Below are positions 3,567 to 64,000 of a DNA stretch of 64,000 bases, one piece after another (position 1 is the stretch's first letter; every line of letters begins with the position of its first letter). Made by a program: the position numbers and the translations under genes. The DNA lies in IMG/VR virus record IMGVR_UViG_3300048693_000367, positions 1 to 64,000 of that record. One strand, written 5' to 3'. The DNA is from a virus. Taxonomy: Duplodnaviria > Caudoviricetes. The notes under the pieces were generated by a model, which did no database searches, was not told the origin of the DNA, and saw only the letters and a list, made by a program, of their open reading frames with translations.

Positions 3567-4262
3567 ATGAGCGAAGCAGTAGTCGAAAAAAAGCCGGTTA
3601 TTATGAGCGCTTCAAAAGCCGATGAGTTTTTTAAGAACTTTCCAAAAGAGAAAGTTGTTGCTTATAAGGACTATTGGGAGAGTGTTCGTCCTAAGAACAA
3701 CGAAGATATTTTCCGACGCTATCTCTTTGCATATATGAGCGTTCATACCACATGGAAATCCAATGTGAATGGATATAATTCTATTAAGAACTTCAACGAA
3801 TGGATTGACGATAAAGAAATTCTTAGAGAAAAGATTAAGAACAGCGGTTGTGGGCTTTATAATAATCGAACAAGGTTTATTTGGGATTTTAAAGATAAGT
3901 TTTGGGCTAACCCCAAAGATTTTTATCTCACAACTAAAAAATATCATGTGAAAAAGCGAGACTCCATTGTGCATAAAATTAGCGGTCTAGGTTCTGCCAA
4001 GGTTTCATTTTCTTTGGAGCAGTGCCATCCTAATGAGTGTAGAGTTTTTTGTGGAGACACCCATATGCTTGAATTGTACGGTATGAAAACTCTTACATAT
4101 CAGAGTAAAACAGGATTATCTTTGTATAAGAAAATGGAAAGACATTGGAGTATCAACTGTGGAAAACTTGGTGTTCCTTTGTATATTGCTAGGTGCATTT
4201 TTTGGGATGCAAAACAAAACAAGGCCGATTCTCGATACTGGTCTTATGTCTTTGAAGAATAG
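3567..4262 (+). CDS. HhH-type N-glycosylase/AP lyase-like protein (Ogg2-like)
   Basis: GLYNNRTRFI ... SGLGSAKVSFSL ... CGDTHML resembles the HhH hairpin plus conserved D-x-H of 8-oxoG glycosylases; ATG at 3567 follows GGAG. Confidence 0.55.
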   Translation: MSEAVVEKKPVIMSASKADEFFKNFPKEKVVAYKDYWESVRPKNNEDIFRRYLFAYMSVHTTWKSNVNGYNSIKNFNEWIDDKEILREKIKNSGCGLYNNRTRFIWDFKDKFWANPKDFYLTTKKYHVKKRDSIVHKISGLGSAKVSFSLEQCHPNECRVFCGDTHMLELYGMKTLTYQSKTGLSLYKKMERHWSINCGKLGVPLYIARCIFWDAKQNKADSRYWSYVFEE

Positions 4263-4722: not shown

Positions 4723-4914
4723 ATGGTTGTTAAATCACTAAATAGTTATGTTGCTGATGAACTAGTCAACAAGGTCTTTCACTTGAATAACGCTCTAATT
4801 CAAGCAAAAAATATTATTTCTATTTTGGAAGAAGAAAATCAAAAACTAAAAAATCTATTATTTCCAAGTAATAGAGAAAAAGAGCAAACAGATAAAATTC
4901 AATTCGTGGACTGA
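4723..4914 (+). CDS. small coiled-coil hypothetical protein
   Basis: AGGAG RBS; GGTGTAT motif upstream at 4663. Confidence 0.6.
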   Translation: MVVKSLNSYVADELVNKVFHLNNALIQAKNIISILEEENQKLKNLLFPSNREKEQTDKIQFVD

Positions 4915-6952: not shown

Positions 6953-7668
6953 AAAACACTAAAAAAAATGACTATTCTCTAATTCCAAAAAAAGAACTTA
7001 AACAATTATTAGAGCAAGGTTTAAACTATACAGAAATTGGAAAAATATATAATAAAAATCTACACTATGTTAGAACAATATGTAAACTGTACGACCTAAC
7101 GCTTTCAAAAAAAGTTAGCAAATGTTTAAAATGTAATAATCAATTCAGTTATTCAGCATCAAAAAACCAAAAATATTGCTCAGACAAATGCCGGTCTGCC
7201 CATTGGCCAATATTATATCCAGAAAAATTCAAGAAACATAGTAAAAAATCACGCTTTAAAAATAATCCTATTAAATGTAAATATTGTAAAATTTTGATTC
7301 CTGATTCAGCAAGAAAGTCCGGTGTGACATACTGTAGCGATGTATGTAGAGCTAAAAATAGAAAAAATCAAAACTATTGTTATAGATCTAATATAAGTAC
7401 AAATTTTATAAAATATAAAAAAGATATAGGCTGTCAAAATTGTGGTTATAATAAGTGCGGTGCGTCGTTAGATTTTCACCATGTTGATCCGACAACTAAA
7501 TCCAGAAGAATCAGTGCTGGATTATGGAATAATAAAACACATCTATTTGAAACAGAATTAAATAAGTGTATATTATTATGTAAAAATTGTCATTATGAAG
7601 CACACAGCGGCGTATTGGAAATACTAAGAGTTGATAATAAATGGAATTGTCAATATAAAATTAGCTAG
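6946..7668 (+). CDS. HNH homing endonuclease
   Basis: CQNCGY...LDFHHVDP...KCILLCKNCHYEAH; YCSDxCR Zn motifs. Confidence 0.85.
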   Translation: MLKNTKKNDYSLIPKKELKQLLEQGLNYTEIGKIYNKNLHYVRTICKLYDLTLSKKVSKCLKCNNQFSYSASKNQKYCSDKCRSAHWPILYPEKFKKHSKKSRFKNNPIKCKYCKILIPDSARKSGVTYCSDVCRAKNRKNQNYCYRSNISTNFIKYKKDIGCQNCGYNKCGASLDFHHVDPTTKSRRISAGLWNNKTHLFETELNKCILLCKNCHYEAHSGVLEILRVDNKWNCQYKIS

Positions 7669-7676
7669 GAGTTAAA

Positions 7677-7997
7677 ATGTCCAAAGATCTTAGCGATATT
7701 CTAAAAGAGATAAATAAAAACCACAAAGAAATTTATCAAGTAGACACTAAATTGAATAAGGAGGTATCGTATCTAGGTAAAGAGTTAACGTCTCTTAAAA
7801 AAGAGGTGGGTACAATCTTAAGTAAACTAGATATTATTCTAAAAATGTTAATGACAATAACTCTTTTTATCGAAGAAAGTGTTGAGATAGGAGAATTAGA
7901 CGACCAGGAAGAAGATTATGACTCTAATGAAGGATGGATTCCAGATAATGAAGAGTGGAGAGAATCATTAGAGGATGAAGACTTAAATGATGATTAG
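7677..7997 (+). CDS. coiled-coil protein with acidic tail
   Basis: AGGAG RBS; ORF. Confidence 0.65.
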   Translation: MSKDLSDILKEINKNHKEIYQVDTKLNKEVSYLGKELTSLKKEVGTILSKLDIILKMLMTITLFIEESVEIGELDDQEEDYDSNEGWIPDNEEWRESLEDEDLNDD

Positions 7998-8256
7998 TTT
8001 AGCCTTATTGGTATCTGTTATTGTTTTGGTAGTATTAATATCGGGGCCGCTGTGTTTCGTGATGAGCGGCTTTAGTTCTATTCCAACGTGGTTTGTGGTT
8101 GTCGCATCTGTTTTAACCATGTTCGTAGGATTGTGGTTTTTTTGTTTACCAATACCAGCAATCAGATATATGGGAATTCTATCTATTTTACTTGGCGTAT
8201 TATCTATAAACAACCGCATAGGAAAAACTTTACACGCAACAACAACTAAAGGTTGA
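7987..8256 (+). CDS. small membrane protein
   Basis: About three hydrophobic segments. Confidence 0.6.
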   Translation: MMISLALLVSVIVLVVLISGPLCFVMSGFSSIPTWFVVVASVLTMFVGLWFFCLPIPAIRYMGILSILLGVLSINNRIGKTLHATTTKG

Positions 8257-8281
8257 CAACCCGACTTGCCGATGGTATACT
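8253..8281 (+). promoter_or_regulatory. sigma70-type promoter (rIIA)
   Basis: TTGACA-17 nt-TATACT, GCCGAT in the spacer. Confidence 0.75.
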
Positions 8282-8322
8282 TGGAACATCACAGGAAACG
8301 ATAACAATTTTGGAGAACAAAG

Positions 8323-11001
8323 ATGAAGTTGGCAGATCGCACAGTTGAAGTTCATAGTGCTGGTATTAGTAGTGCGAATCAGTTTACTATTGCACAAACC
8401 AGTAAAATGTTTAAGATTTTGTCGGATTCTCTTTATTCCGACAAAGTAATGGCAGTTATTCGTGAACTTGCCACAAATGCTTATGATAGTCATGTTAGTG
8501 CTGGCAATAAGAATCCTTTCTCTGTAAAGTTGCCAACCGCTGCTGATCCTAATTTTAGCGTGCGTGATTATGGCACTGGTCTTAGTCAAAAAGATATGGA
8601 GCATCTGTATACAACTTACGGTGCGTCCAATAAGAATGATAGTAATGACTTTGTTGGTTGTCTTGGTCTAGGTTCTAAGAGTCCGTTTGCTTATACCAAG
8701 AGTTTTACTACCACTTCTTATTTTAATGGCACTCAATATACTTATATTGCCGCTATTGATGATGCTGGTGTTCCTACTCTGAACCTTATTCATTCGTGCG
8801 AAACATCCGAACCTAATGGTCTTGAGATTAGTTTTGCTGTTAAGCAATATGACTTTACAGAGTTTAGTCAGAAGGCTATTAGGGTTTTTCATTATTTTAG
8901 AATTAAGCCAATTATTACTGGTGGAGTTCATTGGGATTTCACTAAGGATTATGACAATAAAAATATTGTTATTAGTGGTGAAGGATGGAGGGTCTGCCGC
9001 CTAAATAATGATACTAGACTTTTCCCGAACCATCATCACAAGATTAATAGTGGTGTTATTGCTCTGATGGGTAATATCGCCTATCCTGTTCAGGTAGAAA
9101 ATCTGATCGGTGAAGAGAAGGCTGAAACTCCAGACCATATTGCTCGTTGGAATAGGGCTTTTAACAAGGCGGATATTGCGTCTTGGAAGAGTTTTGTTGG
9201 CGAAGTAATTAATCATGGTCTGTATCTTGAGTTGGATTTTGGTATTGGCGAACTTGAAATGGATGTTAGTCGAGAAGGTTTGCAGTATACCAAAGATGTA
9301 ATCAAGAATCTTCGTCGAAAGACTCAGGAGATTTTTGCAGAACTAAAGGATATGTTTTCGGAAAAGATCGCCTCTGCTAAAACTAAGGTGGAAGCAATCA
9401 CTACCTATTATCAGTTGAACGACCTTGCTGGTGGATGGGGCGTTGGTGCTTCATGGACTGATAGTAATGGCAAGGTACATGATATTAGTTCAGGTTCTGA
9501 TCTGGAGTATAAGTTTAAGAAGAGTAAGAATCTGTATGTCTTTAATTATCGTACAGCGGGCTATCGTTCTCGTCGTATGGTTTATTTGACAGATAGAATT
9601 CATCACGAAACTCTTACTGGTAAGGGAGCCGCATATTGGAATTCCACAAGAAAGAGTGGAGAAATGAAATTCTTCTACTGTGATATGGCAGCAGTAGAAA
9701 CAGCAAAGAAGATTGCCACAAAGTATTCAAATCAAAATGATTGTTTTGTATACCTTATGGTAGACACAGAAGATCACAAAAATGTTACTAAGGGTTTTGA
9801 TGATCTAGTGTCTGATGTTGGAGAGGATAATGTACTCAATATATCAGACTATCGTGATCTTATTAAGTCAACACCAAAGAATAAGGGAAGTAAGGGTAGT
9901 AAGGGTAGTGTCAGCGATCAAGATGTTTTCTTGATTATTGGTGACCAAAAGAATACCAGTCCTTTGACTATTGGTTATAATTCTTCTCCGTATATGAGAA
10001 GCATGACAACTGATCGTCTGGATGACTTTTTGGAAGAGGACACTATCGTATATGTTCCTATTCTACGATATGCTTCTACAACTAATTTTCCATCAGTAAC
10101 TGAAATCTATAAGCAATTGTCTGGTGACAATATCAAGAGAATTCCAGATTTTCTTGGTGATACAAATATCTATGCTATCAAGCATAATTTTGTACAGAAA
10201 CTAGTCAATGAAGGATACAACCTTGTGGATTTTAATACTTGGATGCAAGAGCGTCTAAAGGATTATAATAAGAACAAGTTTGCTGACATGATTAAGTTTA
10301 ATACTATGGTGGAGAATTGTAAGAAAGAATTGTCTAGCGAAGATAGAACCACTTCAGATTACTATGGAAGAGGTTCAACAGACAAGACTGTTCTGTATCA
10401 TATTCTTAATATCTTTGGTCTGGAATATGAAAAGTATATTCCTAACAAGGAATTGGTCAAGTGTCTAGATAGTCTAATGGTTATGGAGTTTTTTGCGGAT
10501 ACTATTCATCGAGATAACTTTGATATGAGTAGATTTTCTGCCAAAGATTATTATGGTCTAATTACCAGACTATTGAGCGACATTGGAATCAATGGACTTG
10601 ATAGTAAAGAGATTAAGACCATGAATATCGCATATAATACTATTCTACATATGCTCGCTTGTTTGTATCATCTTGAGACTGACAACAAAGCATATGAAAA
10701 ATATACAGATATTATTAAGAGTAATTCTGGTGATTTGTACAAGATGCCCAGCATGGATACGATAAGAAATACTTTGAAAGTGGAACTTGACAAGAACCCC
10801 ATGCTCAAGTATATTATTGCCAGTGTCAGTGTTGATGGCAACATCAGAAGTCTGAACAAAAACCCAAATCCTCTAAAACAGGTTGAGGGTAATGGTAGTC
10901 GATATCATTACTATGGCAATACTGGTGGTAGAGAAAGTTGGTTTCAAAAACTGGATGATGTGGAGTCATTCAGACAACAATTGAGTAGCACAATCGGTTA
11001 A
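8323..11001 (+). CDS. rIIA: rIIA-like protein (N-terminal GHKL ATPase)
   Basis: LSDSLYSDK..AVIRELATNAYDSH, VRDYGTGLS, GCLGLGSKSPFAY, SREGLQY; followed by an rIIB-like gene. Confidence 0.9.
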   Translation: MKLADRTVEVHSAGISSANQFTIAQTSKMFKILSDSLYSDKVMAVIRELATNAYDSHVSAGNKNPFSVKLPTAADPNFSVRDYGTGLSQKDMEHLYTTYGASNKNDSNDFVGCLGLGSKSPFAYTKSFTTTSYFNGTQYTYIAAIDDAGVPTLNLIHSCETSEPNGLEISFAVKQYDFTEFSQKAIRVFHYFRIKPIITGGVHWDFTKDYDNKNIVISGEGWRVCRLNNDTRLFPNHHHKINSGVIALMGNIAYPVQVENLIGEEKAETPDHIARWNRAFNKADIASWKSFVGEVINHGLYLELDFGIGELEMDVSREGLQYTKDVIKNLRRKTQEIFAELKDMFSEKIASAKTKVEAITTYYQLNDLAGGWGVGASWTDSNGKVHDISSGSDLEYKFKKSKNLYVFNYRTAGYRSRRMVYLTDRIHHETLTGKGAAYWNSTRKSGEMKFFYCDMAAVETAKKIATKYSNQNDCFVYLMVDTEDHKNVTKGFDDLVSDVGEDNVLNISDYRDLIKSTPKNKGSKGSKGSVSDQDVFLIIGDQKNTSPLTIGYNSSPYMRSMTTDRLDDFLEEDTIVYVPILRYASTTNFPSVTEIYKQLSGDNIKRIPDFLGDTNIYAIKHNFVQKLVNEGYNLVDFNTWMQERLKDYNKNKFADMIKFNTMVENCKKELSSEDRTTSDYYGRGSTDKTVLYHILNIFGLEYEKYIPNKELVKCLDSLMVMEFFADTIHRDNFDMSRFSAKDYYGLITRLLSDIGINGLDSKEIKTMNIAYNTILHMLACLYHLETDNKAYEKYTDIIKSNSGDLYKMPSMDTIRNTLKVELDKNPMLKYIIASVSVDGNIRSLNKNPNPLKQVEGNGSRYHYYGNTGGRESWFQKLDDVESFRQQLSSTIG

Positions 11002-35155: not shown

Positions 35156-35854
35156 ATGAGGCGTACCATACCTCCAATTGATAAAAAATATAGTCACTAT
35201 ACAGTCATATCTGAATGTTATTTGATTGATAAAACATGGTATGTCGATGTTCAGTGCAAGTGTGGAAAAATAAAAAAACAACCAACAAGTAGTCTAAAAA
35301 GACTCAGCCAATGTAAAAAATGTAATGCCATAGAAAAATATAGAAAATATAAAACTGGAGATAAAAAACATAATTTAACTGTTATTGATTATTTAGATAG
35401 TTGTGGCAATTCTCATAGTCAAATCAAAGTAAAATGCGACTGTGGTAATACCAGTAATATATCAACATATCATTTTGGTAAAACAAAAATGTGCAAAAAA
35501 TGCTTTTTATCTAAAAATGGAATAAACCATCCGTCGTATAAAGGAACAAAAAATATAACAAAAACATATTTTTCTCAAATAAAATTGAATGCAAAAAAAA
35601 GAAATTTAAGTTTTAATCTTACTATAAATGATTTAGATAAAGTATTAAAAAAGCAAAATTTTTACTGTTATTTAAGTGGTCAGATAATTGGAGTACACAA
35701 TAAAACAGCTTCTTTAGATAGAATAGATTCTACTAAAGGATATACAAAAGATAATATAGCATGGATACACAAAGATATTCAACGTATGAAAAGCGATTTT
35801 AATTTAGATTACTTTATTGAGATATGTAAAAAAATTACCTCCCACAACTCCTAA
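35156..35854 (+). CDS. free-standing endonuclease (SLDRIDS.KGY family)
   Basis: CxCG repeats, CYLSG, ASLDRIDSTKGYTKDNIAWIHKDIQRMK. Confidence 0.8.
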   Translation: MRRTIPPIDKKYSHYTVISECYLIDKTWYVDVQCKCGKIKKQPTSSLKRLSQCKKCNAIEKYRKYKTGDKKHNLTVIDYLDSCGNSHSQIKVKCDCGNTSNISTYHFGKTKMCKKCFLSKNGINHPSYKGTKNITKTYFSQIKLNAKKRNLSFNLTINDLDKVLKKQNFYCYLSGQIIGVHNKTASLDRIDSTKGYTKDNIAWIHKDIQRMKSDFNLDYFIEICKKITSHNS

Positions 35855-37559: not shown

Positions 37560-38129
37560 ATGTTTAAATTATGCCAAACTTGCAATAAAGACATATCTTC
37601 TAAAAAGAAAAAATCAAAATTTTGTTCTTTATCATGTTCTACAAAGTATAATAGATTATTAGTCTTACAAAAAGATGTTCCAAAATTACATAAAAAATGC
37701 GGCAGATGTTTGGAAATAAAACCCTTCCGTGAATTTAGAAAAAACAAAAACTCAGCTTTTGGCTATTCTTATTTTTGTAGGAAGTGCGATAAGCAAAGAA
37801 CTTATACAAGAGATAAAAGAAAAATTTTATTTAATGCAGCAAAAAAAAGAGCTAAAGATAACAACATAAATTTTAATCTAGAATTAGAGGATATTGTACT
37901 ACCAATTAAATGTCCAATCCTTGGTATGGAATTAGTATTTAATACTGGTAAGGCTAGAGATAATTCATATTCTATAGATAGAATAGATTCCAATTTGGGT
38001 TATATAAAAGGAAATATACAAGTCATAAGCTTTAAAGCTAATACAATAAAAAATAATGCATCGTTATTAGAAATAGAAAAAGTGTATTTATACATGAAAA
38101 ACAATCATTACAATAAGGATTTATTATGA
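37560..38129 (+). CDS. free-standing endonuclease (SIDRIDS.GY family)
   Basis: Zn fingers; CPILG; SIDRIDSNLGYIKGNIQVISFKANTIK. Confidence 0.8.
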   Translation: MFKLCQTCNKDISSKKKKSKFCSLSCSTKYNRLLVLQKDVPKLHKKCGRCLEIKPFREFRKNKNSAFGYSYFCRKCDKQRTYTRDKRKILFNAAKKRAKDNNINFNLELEDIVLPIKCPILGMELVFNTGKARDNSYSIDRIDSNLGYIKGNIQVISFKANTIKNNASLLEIEKVYLYMKNNHYNKDLL

Positions 38130-61701: not shown

Positions 61702-61757
61702 ATGATGTGTCTATAATATCTTTGGTGTATATCATATAGAACACAAAAGGATTGTTT

Positions 61758-62276
61758 ATGCAAAAACTCTATGATATATCTAAAGAATATTTAGAAGAAC
61801 ATTATATAAAACAGCAAAAAAGCGCACAACAAATTTGCAACGAACTAAATATTAAATCCAAAACCGTTATCTTAAGACTCCTTAAAAAATATAATATTCC
61901 TTCCAATAGTCAATTCGGCAAACCCAACAAAAACACTAAAAAATTTGGAGATATTCATCAGTCTTATATTTGTACTTTACGACTCAGAGCAAAAAATAAA
62001 AAAATTGACTTTAATTTAGATGGGGACTATTTATGGAAATTATTTTTAAAACAAAAACGTAAATGCGCATTGTCTGGTTTATTATTAGTATTCCCAAAAG
62101 CGTGGGGAATTAAATCAAAAACCAATATCACAGCATCTTTAGACAGAATTGACTCTAAACTTGGCTATGTTAAAGGTAATGTTCAATGGGTACACAAAAC
62201 AATTAACACAATGAAAATGAACATGAGCGATAATGAATTTATTTACTTTTGTAAAAAGGTTGCTGACTATTCATGA
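61758..62276 (+). CDS. free-standing endonuclease (SLDRIDS.GY family)
   Basis: N-terminal HTH; CALSG; ASLDRIDSKLGYVKGNVQWVHKTINTMK. Confidence 0.82.
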   Translation: MQKLYDISKEYLEEHYIKQQKSAQQICNELNIKSKTVILRLLKKYNIPSNSQFGKPNKNTKKFGDIHQSYICTLRLRAKNKKIDFNLDGDYLWKLFLKQKRKCALSGLLLVFPKAWGIKSKTNITASLDRIDSKLGYVKGNVQWVHKTINTMKMNMSDNEFIYFCKKVADYS

Positions 62277-63316: not shown

Positions 63317-63464
63317 AATTGATAGTTCAAAAGGATACATCCAAAGCAATGTTTGGTGGGTCAAAAAAGATATCAATAAAATGAAACTAGACTTTCCTTT
63401 GCATACGTTTATTGCATTATGTGAAAAGGTCGTAGCCAACAAGGAGAAAATTGGATGGACATGA
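63309..63464 (+). pseudogene. C-terminal remnant of a DRIDS-family endonuclease
   Basis: LNRIDSSKGYIQSNVWWVKKDINKMKLDF...FIALCEKV with no N-terminus; stop overlaps dnaE ATG. Confidence 0.75.
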
Positions 63465-64000
63465 GCAATTATATACCGCTTCATGTCCATTCCTAAGTGG
63501 GCCATGTTCTCACTTCTGGATGGACTCTCAAAACCTGAGCAAATTGCAGAGCGTTGTAAAGAGATAGGTGCAAAAGCATGTGCGCTAACTGATCACGGTA
63601 ATATTGCCGGAGCAGTTAAGTTTTATTCGGCCATGAAAAGCGCCGGTGTGAAACCTATTCTTGGTTGCGAACTATATATATGTGATCAAGACCCAACCAT
63701 AAAAGAAAAAGATAACAAAAATCTTAGTCATTTTATAGTGTTGGCCAAAAACTATAATGGATGGAAAGATCTAATTAAGATTGTTTCTGAATCTAATAAG
63801 CCAGAACACTATTATCATAAGCCAAGATTAGATCTTAAAACTATACAATCTTTGAATCGTGGTAATCTTATTGCTGTTACCGGGCATTTAGGATCAACAT
63901 TAGCAGATATTATTCTGGATAATTATAGTCTCAAATCTGATTGGTTGGAATTGGGCAAACAGCATATCTCAACATTAAAGGATATTTTTGGAGATTTTGT
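63461..64000 (+). CDS. dnaE: DNA polymerase III alpha subunit, PHP domain (partial; interrupted by a 10-nt insertion at about 63494-63503)
   Basis: MSNYIPLHVHS-stop, then in the +1 frame MFSLLDGLSKPEQ...ALTDHGN...KPILGCELY...LAKNYNGW...YHKPR, open to the window end. Confidence 0.9.

Follow-up and report, generated by a model that had tools for sequence, protein, structure and literature searches.

To our knowledge, programmed translational bypass is close to unique, being known from bacteriophage T4 gene 60 and its homologues and from one yeast mitochondrial lineage. The take-off stem-loop of gene 60 has a defining geometry, with the stem-loop's 5′ side holding the take-off codon and a stop following; the MobA/gene 60 element also displays endonuclease decay, a "hit and run" history and loss of the gap following loss of the endonuclease, and similar bypassing was unreported in other phages as of 2022 (bioRxiv 10.1101/2022.08.31.505936). 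Here we describe a short, stop-containing gap near the 5′ end of dnaE in an uncultured phage, within the first 64 kilobases (kb) (64,000 nucleotides (nt); hereafter the window) of the 122-kb IMG/VR record IMGVR_UViG_3300048693_000367, whose completeness is estimated at 88%. Based on comparison with related sequences, we propose, with a probability of roughly 0.7, that this gap (63494–63503) is a programmed translational bypass element, i.e., a short ribosome hop, within a mobile cassette installed at the 5′ end of dnaE by an HNH-type homing endonuclease gene. A full-text literature search found no published description of a bypass in dnaE.

The gap divides dnaE into two open reading frames (ORFs), arranged as follows.

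63441–63446, plus strand: Shine-Dalgarno sequence AAGGAG, read directly, 8 nt before ATG 63455; the same sequence and spacing occur in nearly all gap-bearing relatives.
63455–63493, plus strand: dnaE ORF1, a 13-codon leader (M-D-M-S-N-Y-I-P-L-H-V-H-S) that ends with the proposed take-off codon TCC (63491–63493).
63494–63503, plus strand: 10-nt coding gap, TAAGTGGGCC, with the TAA stop at 63494–63496 and the proposed landing triplet GCC at 63501–63503.
63504–64000, plus strand: dnaE ORF2 (M-F-S-L-L-D-G...), PHP domain, which resumes at ATG 63504 and extends beyond the window to G000 64893.

Frame A opens at ATG 63455 (or 63461) and reads through CAT GTC CAT TCC to TAA, stopping after 13 codons, and frame B (+1) reads ..K-W-A-M-F-S-L-L-D-G, which continues into PHP and DNA_pol3_alpha. 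Since a strong AAGGAG sits 8 nt 5′ of ATG 63455, dnaE starts in frame A. The full ORF2 contains PHP (Pfam PHP, E 2.9e-32), DNA_pol3_alpha and N-intein domains. Deletion of 63494–63503 gave H-V-H-S-M-F-S-L-L-D-G, collinear with the homologues and with the spacing found in all uninterrupted relatives and in Thermus aquaticus Pol III alpha (PDB 2HPI). This confirmed an earlier sequence-only reading of this DNA, which had proposed that removing a stop-bearing 10-nt insert restores the PHP motif. That reading had also entertained an assembly error, and this was refuted: 10 assemblies made independently, from seven SRA runs and three JGI metagenomes, contain the identical 111-nt junction. The 10-nt insert in the window's dnaE is genuine.

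We found that the window is one member of a family of gaps. Among 41 relatives identified by a protein similarity search, 39 were uninterrupted, and the remaining two, L037 and L038 (65% identical), carried a different 10-nt insert, TAGGGAATCC, at the same place. Scanning IMG/VR for a pattern of P-L-H-x-H-S codons, any 4–34 nt, and [FY]-S-L-L-D-G codons, with no stop demanded, returned 78 loci, 77 of which were a dnaE gapped at exactly the window's site; a second pattern, with GAC for Asp, gave three further hits and added one junction type. This resulted in 55 distinct junctions (window included), all in uncultured phage dnaE and all located just 3′ of the PHP H-x-H-Ser codons. In a less biased sample consisting of the best 80 of at least 563 relatives, 68 were uninterrupted and 12 were gapped, and H-x-H-[ST] was kept in each of the 80.

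A stop codon opened every one of the 55 gaps (TAA 28, TAG 23, TGA 4). Gap lengths were 5, 6, 7, 8, 9, 10, 11 and 12 nt, with counts by length modulo 3 of 14, 19 and 22, and even the window's own sub-lineage, which shares the M-D-M-S-N-Y leader and the same endonuclease, contained both a 10-nt gap (TAAGTGGGCY) and an 11-nt gap (TAAGTGGGTCT). Because the gaps occupy all three frames, a simple or fixed-sign frameshift, or readthrough, is ruled out for the family, and since gaps of all three frame classes must be served, a frame-independent event is required. The take-off codon was Ser TCN in 55/55 junctions, and the triplet preceding the resuming codon was identical to it in 16, another TCN in 18 (34 TCN in total), NCN in 19 and a poor match in two. 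This landing triplet varied mostly at the third base, in a codon-like manner, though it would not be translated under the hop. No second TC was found within the gap in any of the 55 junctions. The resuming codon was CAY in 39 junctions, ATG in 13, GAA in two and CAA in one, and uninterrupted relatives displayed His and Met at this position.

The peptide encoded upstream of the gap was also conserved. Carriers share AAGGAG, 8 nt, ATG, and a 13–14-codon leader of the form M-[DG]-[VM]-x-x-x-Y-x-P-L-H-V-H-S; non-carriers begin M-N-Y-I-P-L-H-C-H-S at an ATGA overlap with the upstream gene. The leader Tyr lies outside what the search pattern required, and was kept in all listed junctions. Comparison of the window leader with that of L038 identified six base differences over eight codons, all of them silent. 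Within the DnaE body, seven PHP metal ligands (D, H, E, H, H, D, H) show no variation, and the two remaining His lie upstream of the gap. We detected no family A or B polymerases on the 122-kb, 88%-complete record, on which this dnaE is the sole DNA polymerase gene. Because the seven body ligands are invariant, the other two His lie 5′ of the gap, H-x-H-[ST] is kept throughout the 80 best relatives and dnaE is the only polymerase gene, the conservation pattern indicates that the enzyme must include the upstream peptide.

The RNA spanning the junction is predicted to form a bipartite stem-loop, comprising an 8-base-pair outer stem, a 2x2 internal loop, a 6–8-base-pair inner stem, and a loop that contains the landing triplet together with the resuming codon. 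The parts in the window are as follows.

63485–63492, plus strand: 5′ arm of the outer stem, GUCCAUUC (Val-His-Ser codons), including the first two bases of the take-off codon.
63495–63501, plus strand: 5′ arm of the inner stem, AAGUGGG (two stop-codon bases plus gap), whose partner codons show compensatory changes at their wobble positions.
63502–63508, plus strand: apical loop, CCAUGUU (landing-triplet positions 2 and 3, and the resuming AUG).
63509–63515, plus strand: 3′ arm of the inner stem, CUCACUU (Phe-Ser-Leu codons of ORF2), supported by the fold and by compensatory changes.
63518–63525, plus strand: 3′ arm of the outer stem, GGAUGGAC (last base of Leu, Asp, Gly, and first base of Leu), supported by the fold, covariation and synonymous fixation.

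The minimum-energy fold of the window had an energy of −18.7 kcal/mol (z = −4.46) and represented 65% of the ensemble, with weaker folding of the antisense strand (−15.4), and for nearly all variants the bipartite stem-loop was predicted as well, with energies between −14 and −24 kcal/mol. Using a covariance-model alignment of 50 distinct rows, we observed that 98.9% of cells pair and that six pairs have changed on both sides; the observed pairing was reached by 0 of 500 shuffles, and slid controls paired in 29–51% of cells. In unaligned folds, the Tyr/Phe, Ser and Leu codons had their wobble positions paired as A-U, G-C, U-A and C-G with matching changes in the gap, and G-U pairs were frequent where coding fixes the 3′ base, which points to RNA rather than duplex DNA. 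Exchanging the Y-S-L arm among variants cost approximately 3 kcal/mol. The identity of the stop codon covaried with that of its paired Leu codon, and a first Leu of CTG or TTG, which would be unable to pair with the stop, occurred in 1/42 distinct carrier flanks vs 15/67 uninterrupted ones. Synonymous codons in the outer stem were likewise fixed in carriers compared with uninterrupted relatives: Val was GTC in 39/42 vs 2/67, Ser was TCY in 39/42 vs 33/67, Asp was GAT in 41/42 vs 51/67, and the full outer stem was present in 29/42 vs 1/67. The gap region had no Rfam matches at E up to 1.

This structure differs from the hairpin drawn in the sequence-only reading, in which GTCCATT (63485–63491) pairs with AGTGGGC (63496–63502). 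The pairing does exist in the sequence, but it is not part of the minimum-energy fold, and it was not upheld as a conserved structure, since 86% of cells can form it with no compensatory change and shuffles equal it. In the conserved structure, the gap instead pairs with the downstream Y-S-L codons, and the V-H-S codons pair with the (L)-D-G-(L) codons. That reading had suggested looking for the insert and for compensatory changes in related dnaE genes, and both were found, in the form of the 55 junctions and the compensatory changes in the bipartite stem-loop.

Two minimal gaps had no inner stem: TCT-TAA-TCT in L103 (6 nt, TAATCT; ~3784–3834) and TCG-TAAA-TCG in L122 (7 nt, TAAATCG; ~4858–4909). 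These amount to bare hops with perfectly matched Ser codons on both sides, and they may represent either the simplest working form of the element or a decaying form. L175 (1456–3321) and L178 encode the leader M-G-A-K-L-N-Y-V-P-L-H-V-H-S and retain both outer-stem arms, and the gap and endonuclease gene are absent. Both read H-V-H-S-H-F-S-L-L-D-G in a single 621-codon ORF, which equals the product that a hop would give, and sequence comparison suggests that these are apparently cases of precise gap loss.

Directly upstream of the window's dnaE leader, we identified the remains of a homing endonuclease gene.

63330–63464, plus strand: remnant comprising the last ~44 C-terminal codons and the stop of a homing endonuclease gene of HNH type (phrog_3322, profile positions 115–153 of 162, E 3.5e-6).

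The last codons of this remnant contain the Shine-Dalgarno sequence and start codon of the dnaE leader. Its product is 50% identical to the C-terminus of a full paralogue encoded at 61752–62276, and is collinear with the C-terminus of an intact 253-amino-acid gene at the same place in L083, where, at 1582–2343, this 253-codon HNH-type gene (PHROG 3322, 374, 3118) occupies the nuclease-dnaE interval and again holds the leader Shine-Dalgarno sequence and start in its last codons. The connection to an adjacent endonuclease remnant suggested by the sequence-only reading was therefore well placed, as relatives carry, in the same position, an intact HNH-type gene to whose 3′ end the remnant corresponds. 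An endonuclease gene or remnant lay directly upstream of the leader in ~15 of the 78 carrier loci; most carriers have lost it. On a quick DnaE tree, carriers and non-carriers were interleaved, and its well-supported branches require at least eight changes. Analysis of cassette breakpoints by sliding identity gave a weak signal among these highly diverged sequences, in which L071 was window-like over the first ~60 nt and then resembled its gap-less sister. As in a homing cassette, a free-standing endonuclease gene lies beside an altered target, and it is distributed patchily among close relatives. By analogy with mobA and gene 60, the gap together with the recoded flanks would probably shield the genome that carries it from the endonuclease of the cassette itself.

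A separate observation concerns L012 and L014, in which an endonuclease remnant lies ~270 nt upstream of an uninterrupted dnaE reading H-C-H-S-M-L-S-L-L-D-G (Leu for Tyr/Phe, AGT for Ser). The target in these two may have been altered by substitutions rather than by a gap.

The proposed bypass would proceed as follows. Ribosomes would initiate at AUG 63455 behind the strong Shine-Dalgarno sequence and translate the 13-codon leader, bringing the peptidyl-transfer RNA (peptidyl-tRNA(Ser)) onto UCC 63491–63493 in the P site while UAA occupies the A site. Decoding of this UAA would be slow, as it is in T4 gene 60, given that the stop begins the 5′ arm of a stable stem-loop. The peptidyl-tRNA would then release UCC, the mRNA would slide by 10 nt, and the anticodon would re-pair at GCC 63501–63503 (two of three positions), at the stem-loop junction. 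Decoding would restart with AUG 63504 to give a single polypeptide, M-D-M-S-N-Y-I-P-L-H-V-H-S-M-F-S-L-L-D-G..., with PHP motif I intact. In keeping with such a bypass, skipping the gap gives a collinear product, a stop lies 3′ of the take-off codon in 55/55 junctions, and a conserved stem-loop holds the take-off codon. Among the options named in the sequence-only reading, a programmed hop from TCC to GCC is the one that the family evidence supports best.

Several observations weigh against this proposal. The window's landing triplet, GCC, is not a Ser codon and agrees with UCC at positions 2 and 3 only, as is the case for 19/55 junctions in total, with two more matching poorly. The landing site lies within the hairpin loop and not beyond the hairpin, and the nascent chain would be just 13–14 residues long vs 46 in gene 60. 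No conserved Shine-Dalgarno-like element was found 5′ of the landing site, with a 4-nt Shine-Dalgarno-like word present in the gap of 13/55 junctions. With regard to sampling, the main set of junctions came from a pattern that demanded the flanking codons, and many of the 55 variants are related, such that counts do not represent independent events. The covariation alignment was fitted to the structure model, though pairs were also counted on unaligned folds, and the DnaE tree came from a quick search in which the close relatives L082 and L083 represent the window, whose own row was not included. Finally, potential start codons are available downstream of the gap: an AUG follows it immediately in the window (63504) and in 12 other junctions, and TTG at the second Leu is available in 50/55.

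These starts are also what favors termination-reinitiation, the alternative that survives best. In this scenario, ribosomes would stop at UAA 63494 and restart 10 nt further on at AUG 63504, producing a DnaE without PHP strand 1 and H-x-H, and the leader would serve as a coupling device only; the hairpin would mask the restart site until opened by the upstream ribosome. The sequence-only reading had raised a restart at ATG 63504, and this is possible in the window. It fails across the family, however, because in 22/55 junctions the downstream frame offers no canonical start ahead of the [FY] codon, and in L107 it offers none whatsoever. Furthermore, the resuming codon is CAY in 39/55, the Y-x-P-L-H-V-H-S peptide is preserved through synonymous change only, the TCN triplet at the landing position is conserved, and coding is maintained in the [FY]-S-L codons. 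The seven other PHP ligands are invariant and a restart product would lose a conserved catalytic motif, and the gap-less derivatives read as a single ORF. We therefore consider reinitiation unlikely.

Removal of the gap at the RNA level appears very unlikely. Under this explanation, the hairpin would guide an endonuclease and ligase, or other editing, to excise 5–12 nt, in the manner of HAC1/XBP1 unconventional splicing or a micro-intron. The hairpin would suit such a process, being conserved, showing covariation on the RNA strand and juxtaposing the two coding ends, and structure-guided cutting could tolerate a variable excised length. Yet RNA removal needs neither a leading stop, which 55/55 gaps have in three forms, nor a gap whose 3′ end carries a Ser-like triplet, and the matched codons of L103 and L122 come with no inner hairpin. 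No Rfam family matched, and the gap is much too short for a self-splicing core. We know of no RNA excision activity of this kind in bacteria or phages. The sequence evidence argues against the bipartite hairpin being a guide for gap excision by an endonuclease and ligase rather than a decoding signal, and we regard that role as highly improbable; if it were true, a phage or bacterium would for the first time be found to have a micro-intron or unconventional mRNA splicing. The group I intron relic, or micro-intron, considered in the sequence-only reading did not stand, as gaps of 5–12 nt cannot hold a catalytic core, always lead with a stop and have no Rfam match, and the P1-like upstream pairing does not covary.

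We give very little credence to a +1 programmed frameshift at UCC-UAA-G, which would resemble that of prfB and yield H-V-H-S-K-W-A-M-F-S-L-L-D-G, with three extra residues in the PHP motif. The 10-nt gap does set ORF2 in the +1 frame, and a stop in the A site is a classic +1 stimulator; in prfB (RF2), too, an A-site stop acts as the pause signal early in recoding. However, the prfB frameshift needs CUU-U and an upstream Shine-Dalgarno sequence and is always +1, whereas the frames of the dnaE gaps vary and neither signal is present: UCC-U offers no +1 re-pairing, and there is no Shine-Dalgarno sequence 3 nt upstream. A +1 shift suits gaps of 3n+1 nt only, and relatives with the same cassette and 9-, 11- or 12-nt gaps would need shifts of 0 or −1. 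The three extra residues would also vary by lineage, breaking a spacing that stays constant all the way from this family to Thermus.

It is equally hard to believe that the gap is a tolerated scar in an inactive PHP N-terminus or an inactive gene, with replication relying on, e.g., the host polymerase and conservation reflecting common descent of a selfish cassette, for although the cassette is selfish and patchy on the tree and the same gene hosts further parasites (a split intein and an endonuclease gene), every carrier has an intact and conserved ORF2 over 50–90% identity, the hairpin is kept by compensatory changes with stop and landing triplets maintained, no other polymerase is present on the 88%-complete record, and the junction is identical in 10 samples.

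The proposed dnaE bypass resembles T4 gene 60/MobA in several respects. Both involve an untranslated gap in an essential DNA-metabolism gene, a stop right after the take-off codon, a conserved, covarying stem-loop whose 5′ side contains the take-off codon, and, for part of the dnaE junctions, matched or wobble-matched take-off and landing triplets. Both also have an N-terminal extension derived from the element, a neighboring free-standing HNH-type gene that is often decayed or lost, gap-less derivatives that keep the extension, and a patchy, mobile distribution. In contrast, there is no sequence relationship between the two, and the host gene is dnaE here vs a topoisomerase (II large subunit) gene there. 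The gap measures 5–12 nt in dnaE vs ~50 in gene 60, with take-off from Ser UCN vs Gly GGA or Asp, and landing would occur inside the loop of the same hairpin rather than 3′ of the hairpin. Gene 60 bypassing involves a nascent chain of 46 residues and a mini-Shine-Dalgarno sequence, whereas the dnaE bypass, which we infer from sequence, would involve 13–14 residues and no conserved mini-Shine-Dalgarno. Unlike the MobA/gene 60 host gene, dnaE is not split by the endonuclease gene, which lies upstream of its start. Because the host gene is dnaE, the gap is 5–12 nt long, and the take-off codon and flanks differ, the putative element is an independent, far shorter analogue of T4 gene 60/mobA and not a member by descent. 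New relative to gene 60 would thus be an element that is non-homologous, 5–10 times shorter, located in another gene, and landing in its own hairpin loop.

Two other systems are relevant for comparison. In Escherichia coli constructs, low-level tRNA hopping, as summarized in the 2022 preprint, is a short, frame-independent hop of peptidyl-tRNA past a stop or slow codon to a nearby matched codon; with a stop, this is exactly the arrangement seen in L103 and L122 (refs 5–8 in bioRxiv 10.1101/2022.08.31.505936). That hopping is described there as unprogrammed and inefficient, whereas the dnaE site lies in an essential gene in dozens of lineages, mostly with a dedicated hairpin and leader. According to the same preprint's account, the byp elements of Magnusiomyces capitatus mitochondria are likewise numerous, mobile, short bypassed inserts that tolerate imperfect matches between take-off and landing (bioRxiv 10.1101/2022.08.31.505936). 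As portrayed there, they differ in that they are 27–55 nt long, mitochondrial, GC-cluster-like and spread over many genes, with an unassigned sense codon rather than a stop and no endonuclease cassette.

If confirmed, the dnaE element would represent an independent origin of bypass in phages, and its dozens of variants (5–12 nt, three stops, matched and mismatched landings, with and without hairpin) would constitute a natural mutational series on take-off and landing. It would also be a further case of homing endonucleases colonizing the most conserved part of an essential gene via a decoding trick. For annotation, gene callers place the start of this dnaE at the internal ATG, so the H-x-H motif is missed. 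If the family is confirmed, the cassette, at ~45 nt, could be used as a portable translational control element.

With respect to genomic context, the 3′ end of the window encodes a replication module consisting of a primase, a dNMP kinase, an HNH-type endonuclease gene, a PD-(D/E)XK nuclease and dnaE. We found no cultured relatives with an annotated recoding site; the best cultured phage DnaE match is 35% identical. No phage-encoded tRNA-Ser that could favor hopping was found, tRNA-Ile(TAT) being the sole tRNA found on the whole 122-kb record. This tRNA-Ile (anticodon TAT) lies at 175–250 of the window, and a transfer-messenger RNA (tmRNA) with the tag peptide GETQLALAA lies at 881–1236.

Throughout this phage family, Pol III alpha is split over two genes, the first encoding PHP and palm, and the second encoding fingers, HhH and OB; the two are separated by an RNase_T (epsilon-like) exonuclease gene (L002 6720–7427, then 7420–9036; L038 5023–5715, then 5621 onward). 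The dnaE of the window phage is also "fractured" ~1.1 kb downstream and past the window end (G000 about 64617–65825; L002 4618–4893, 4944–5738 and 5668–5826). The order at this site is the extein end ...P-G-R-G, a 91-residue N-intein, a separate 264-codon endonuclease-like ORF (phrog_945), a C-intein, and then S-A-A-G-C; the dnaE genes of L038 and L083 are without the split-intein insert. This arrangement resembles that of fractured genes, in which a split intein is combined with a free-standing endonuclease gene (Dassa et al., 2009; PMC2677866). As with the dnaE gap, a homing endonuclease there resides inside a phage replication gene without killing it; fractured genes are repaired by protein trans-splicing (PMC2677866), whereas repair of the dnaE gap is proposed to occur at the decoding level.

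The full-length paralogue of the endonuclease remnant (61752–62276; 174 codons, phrog_3322, E 1.5e-24) is situated between the dNMP kinase and nuclease genes. Two further, more weakly related stretches lie in the window near 35552–35848 and 37848–38063, and the genome contains several homing-endonuclease copies.

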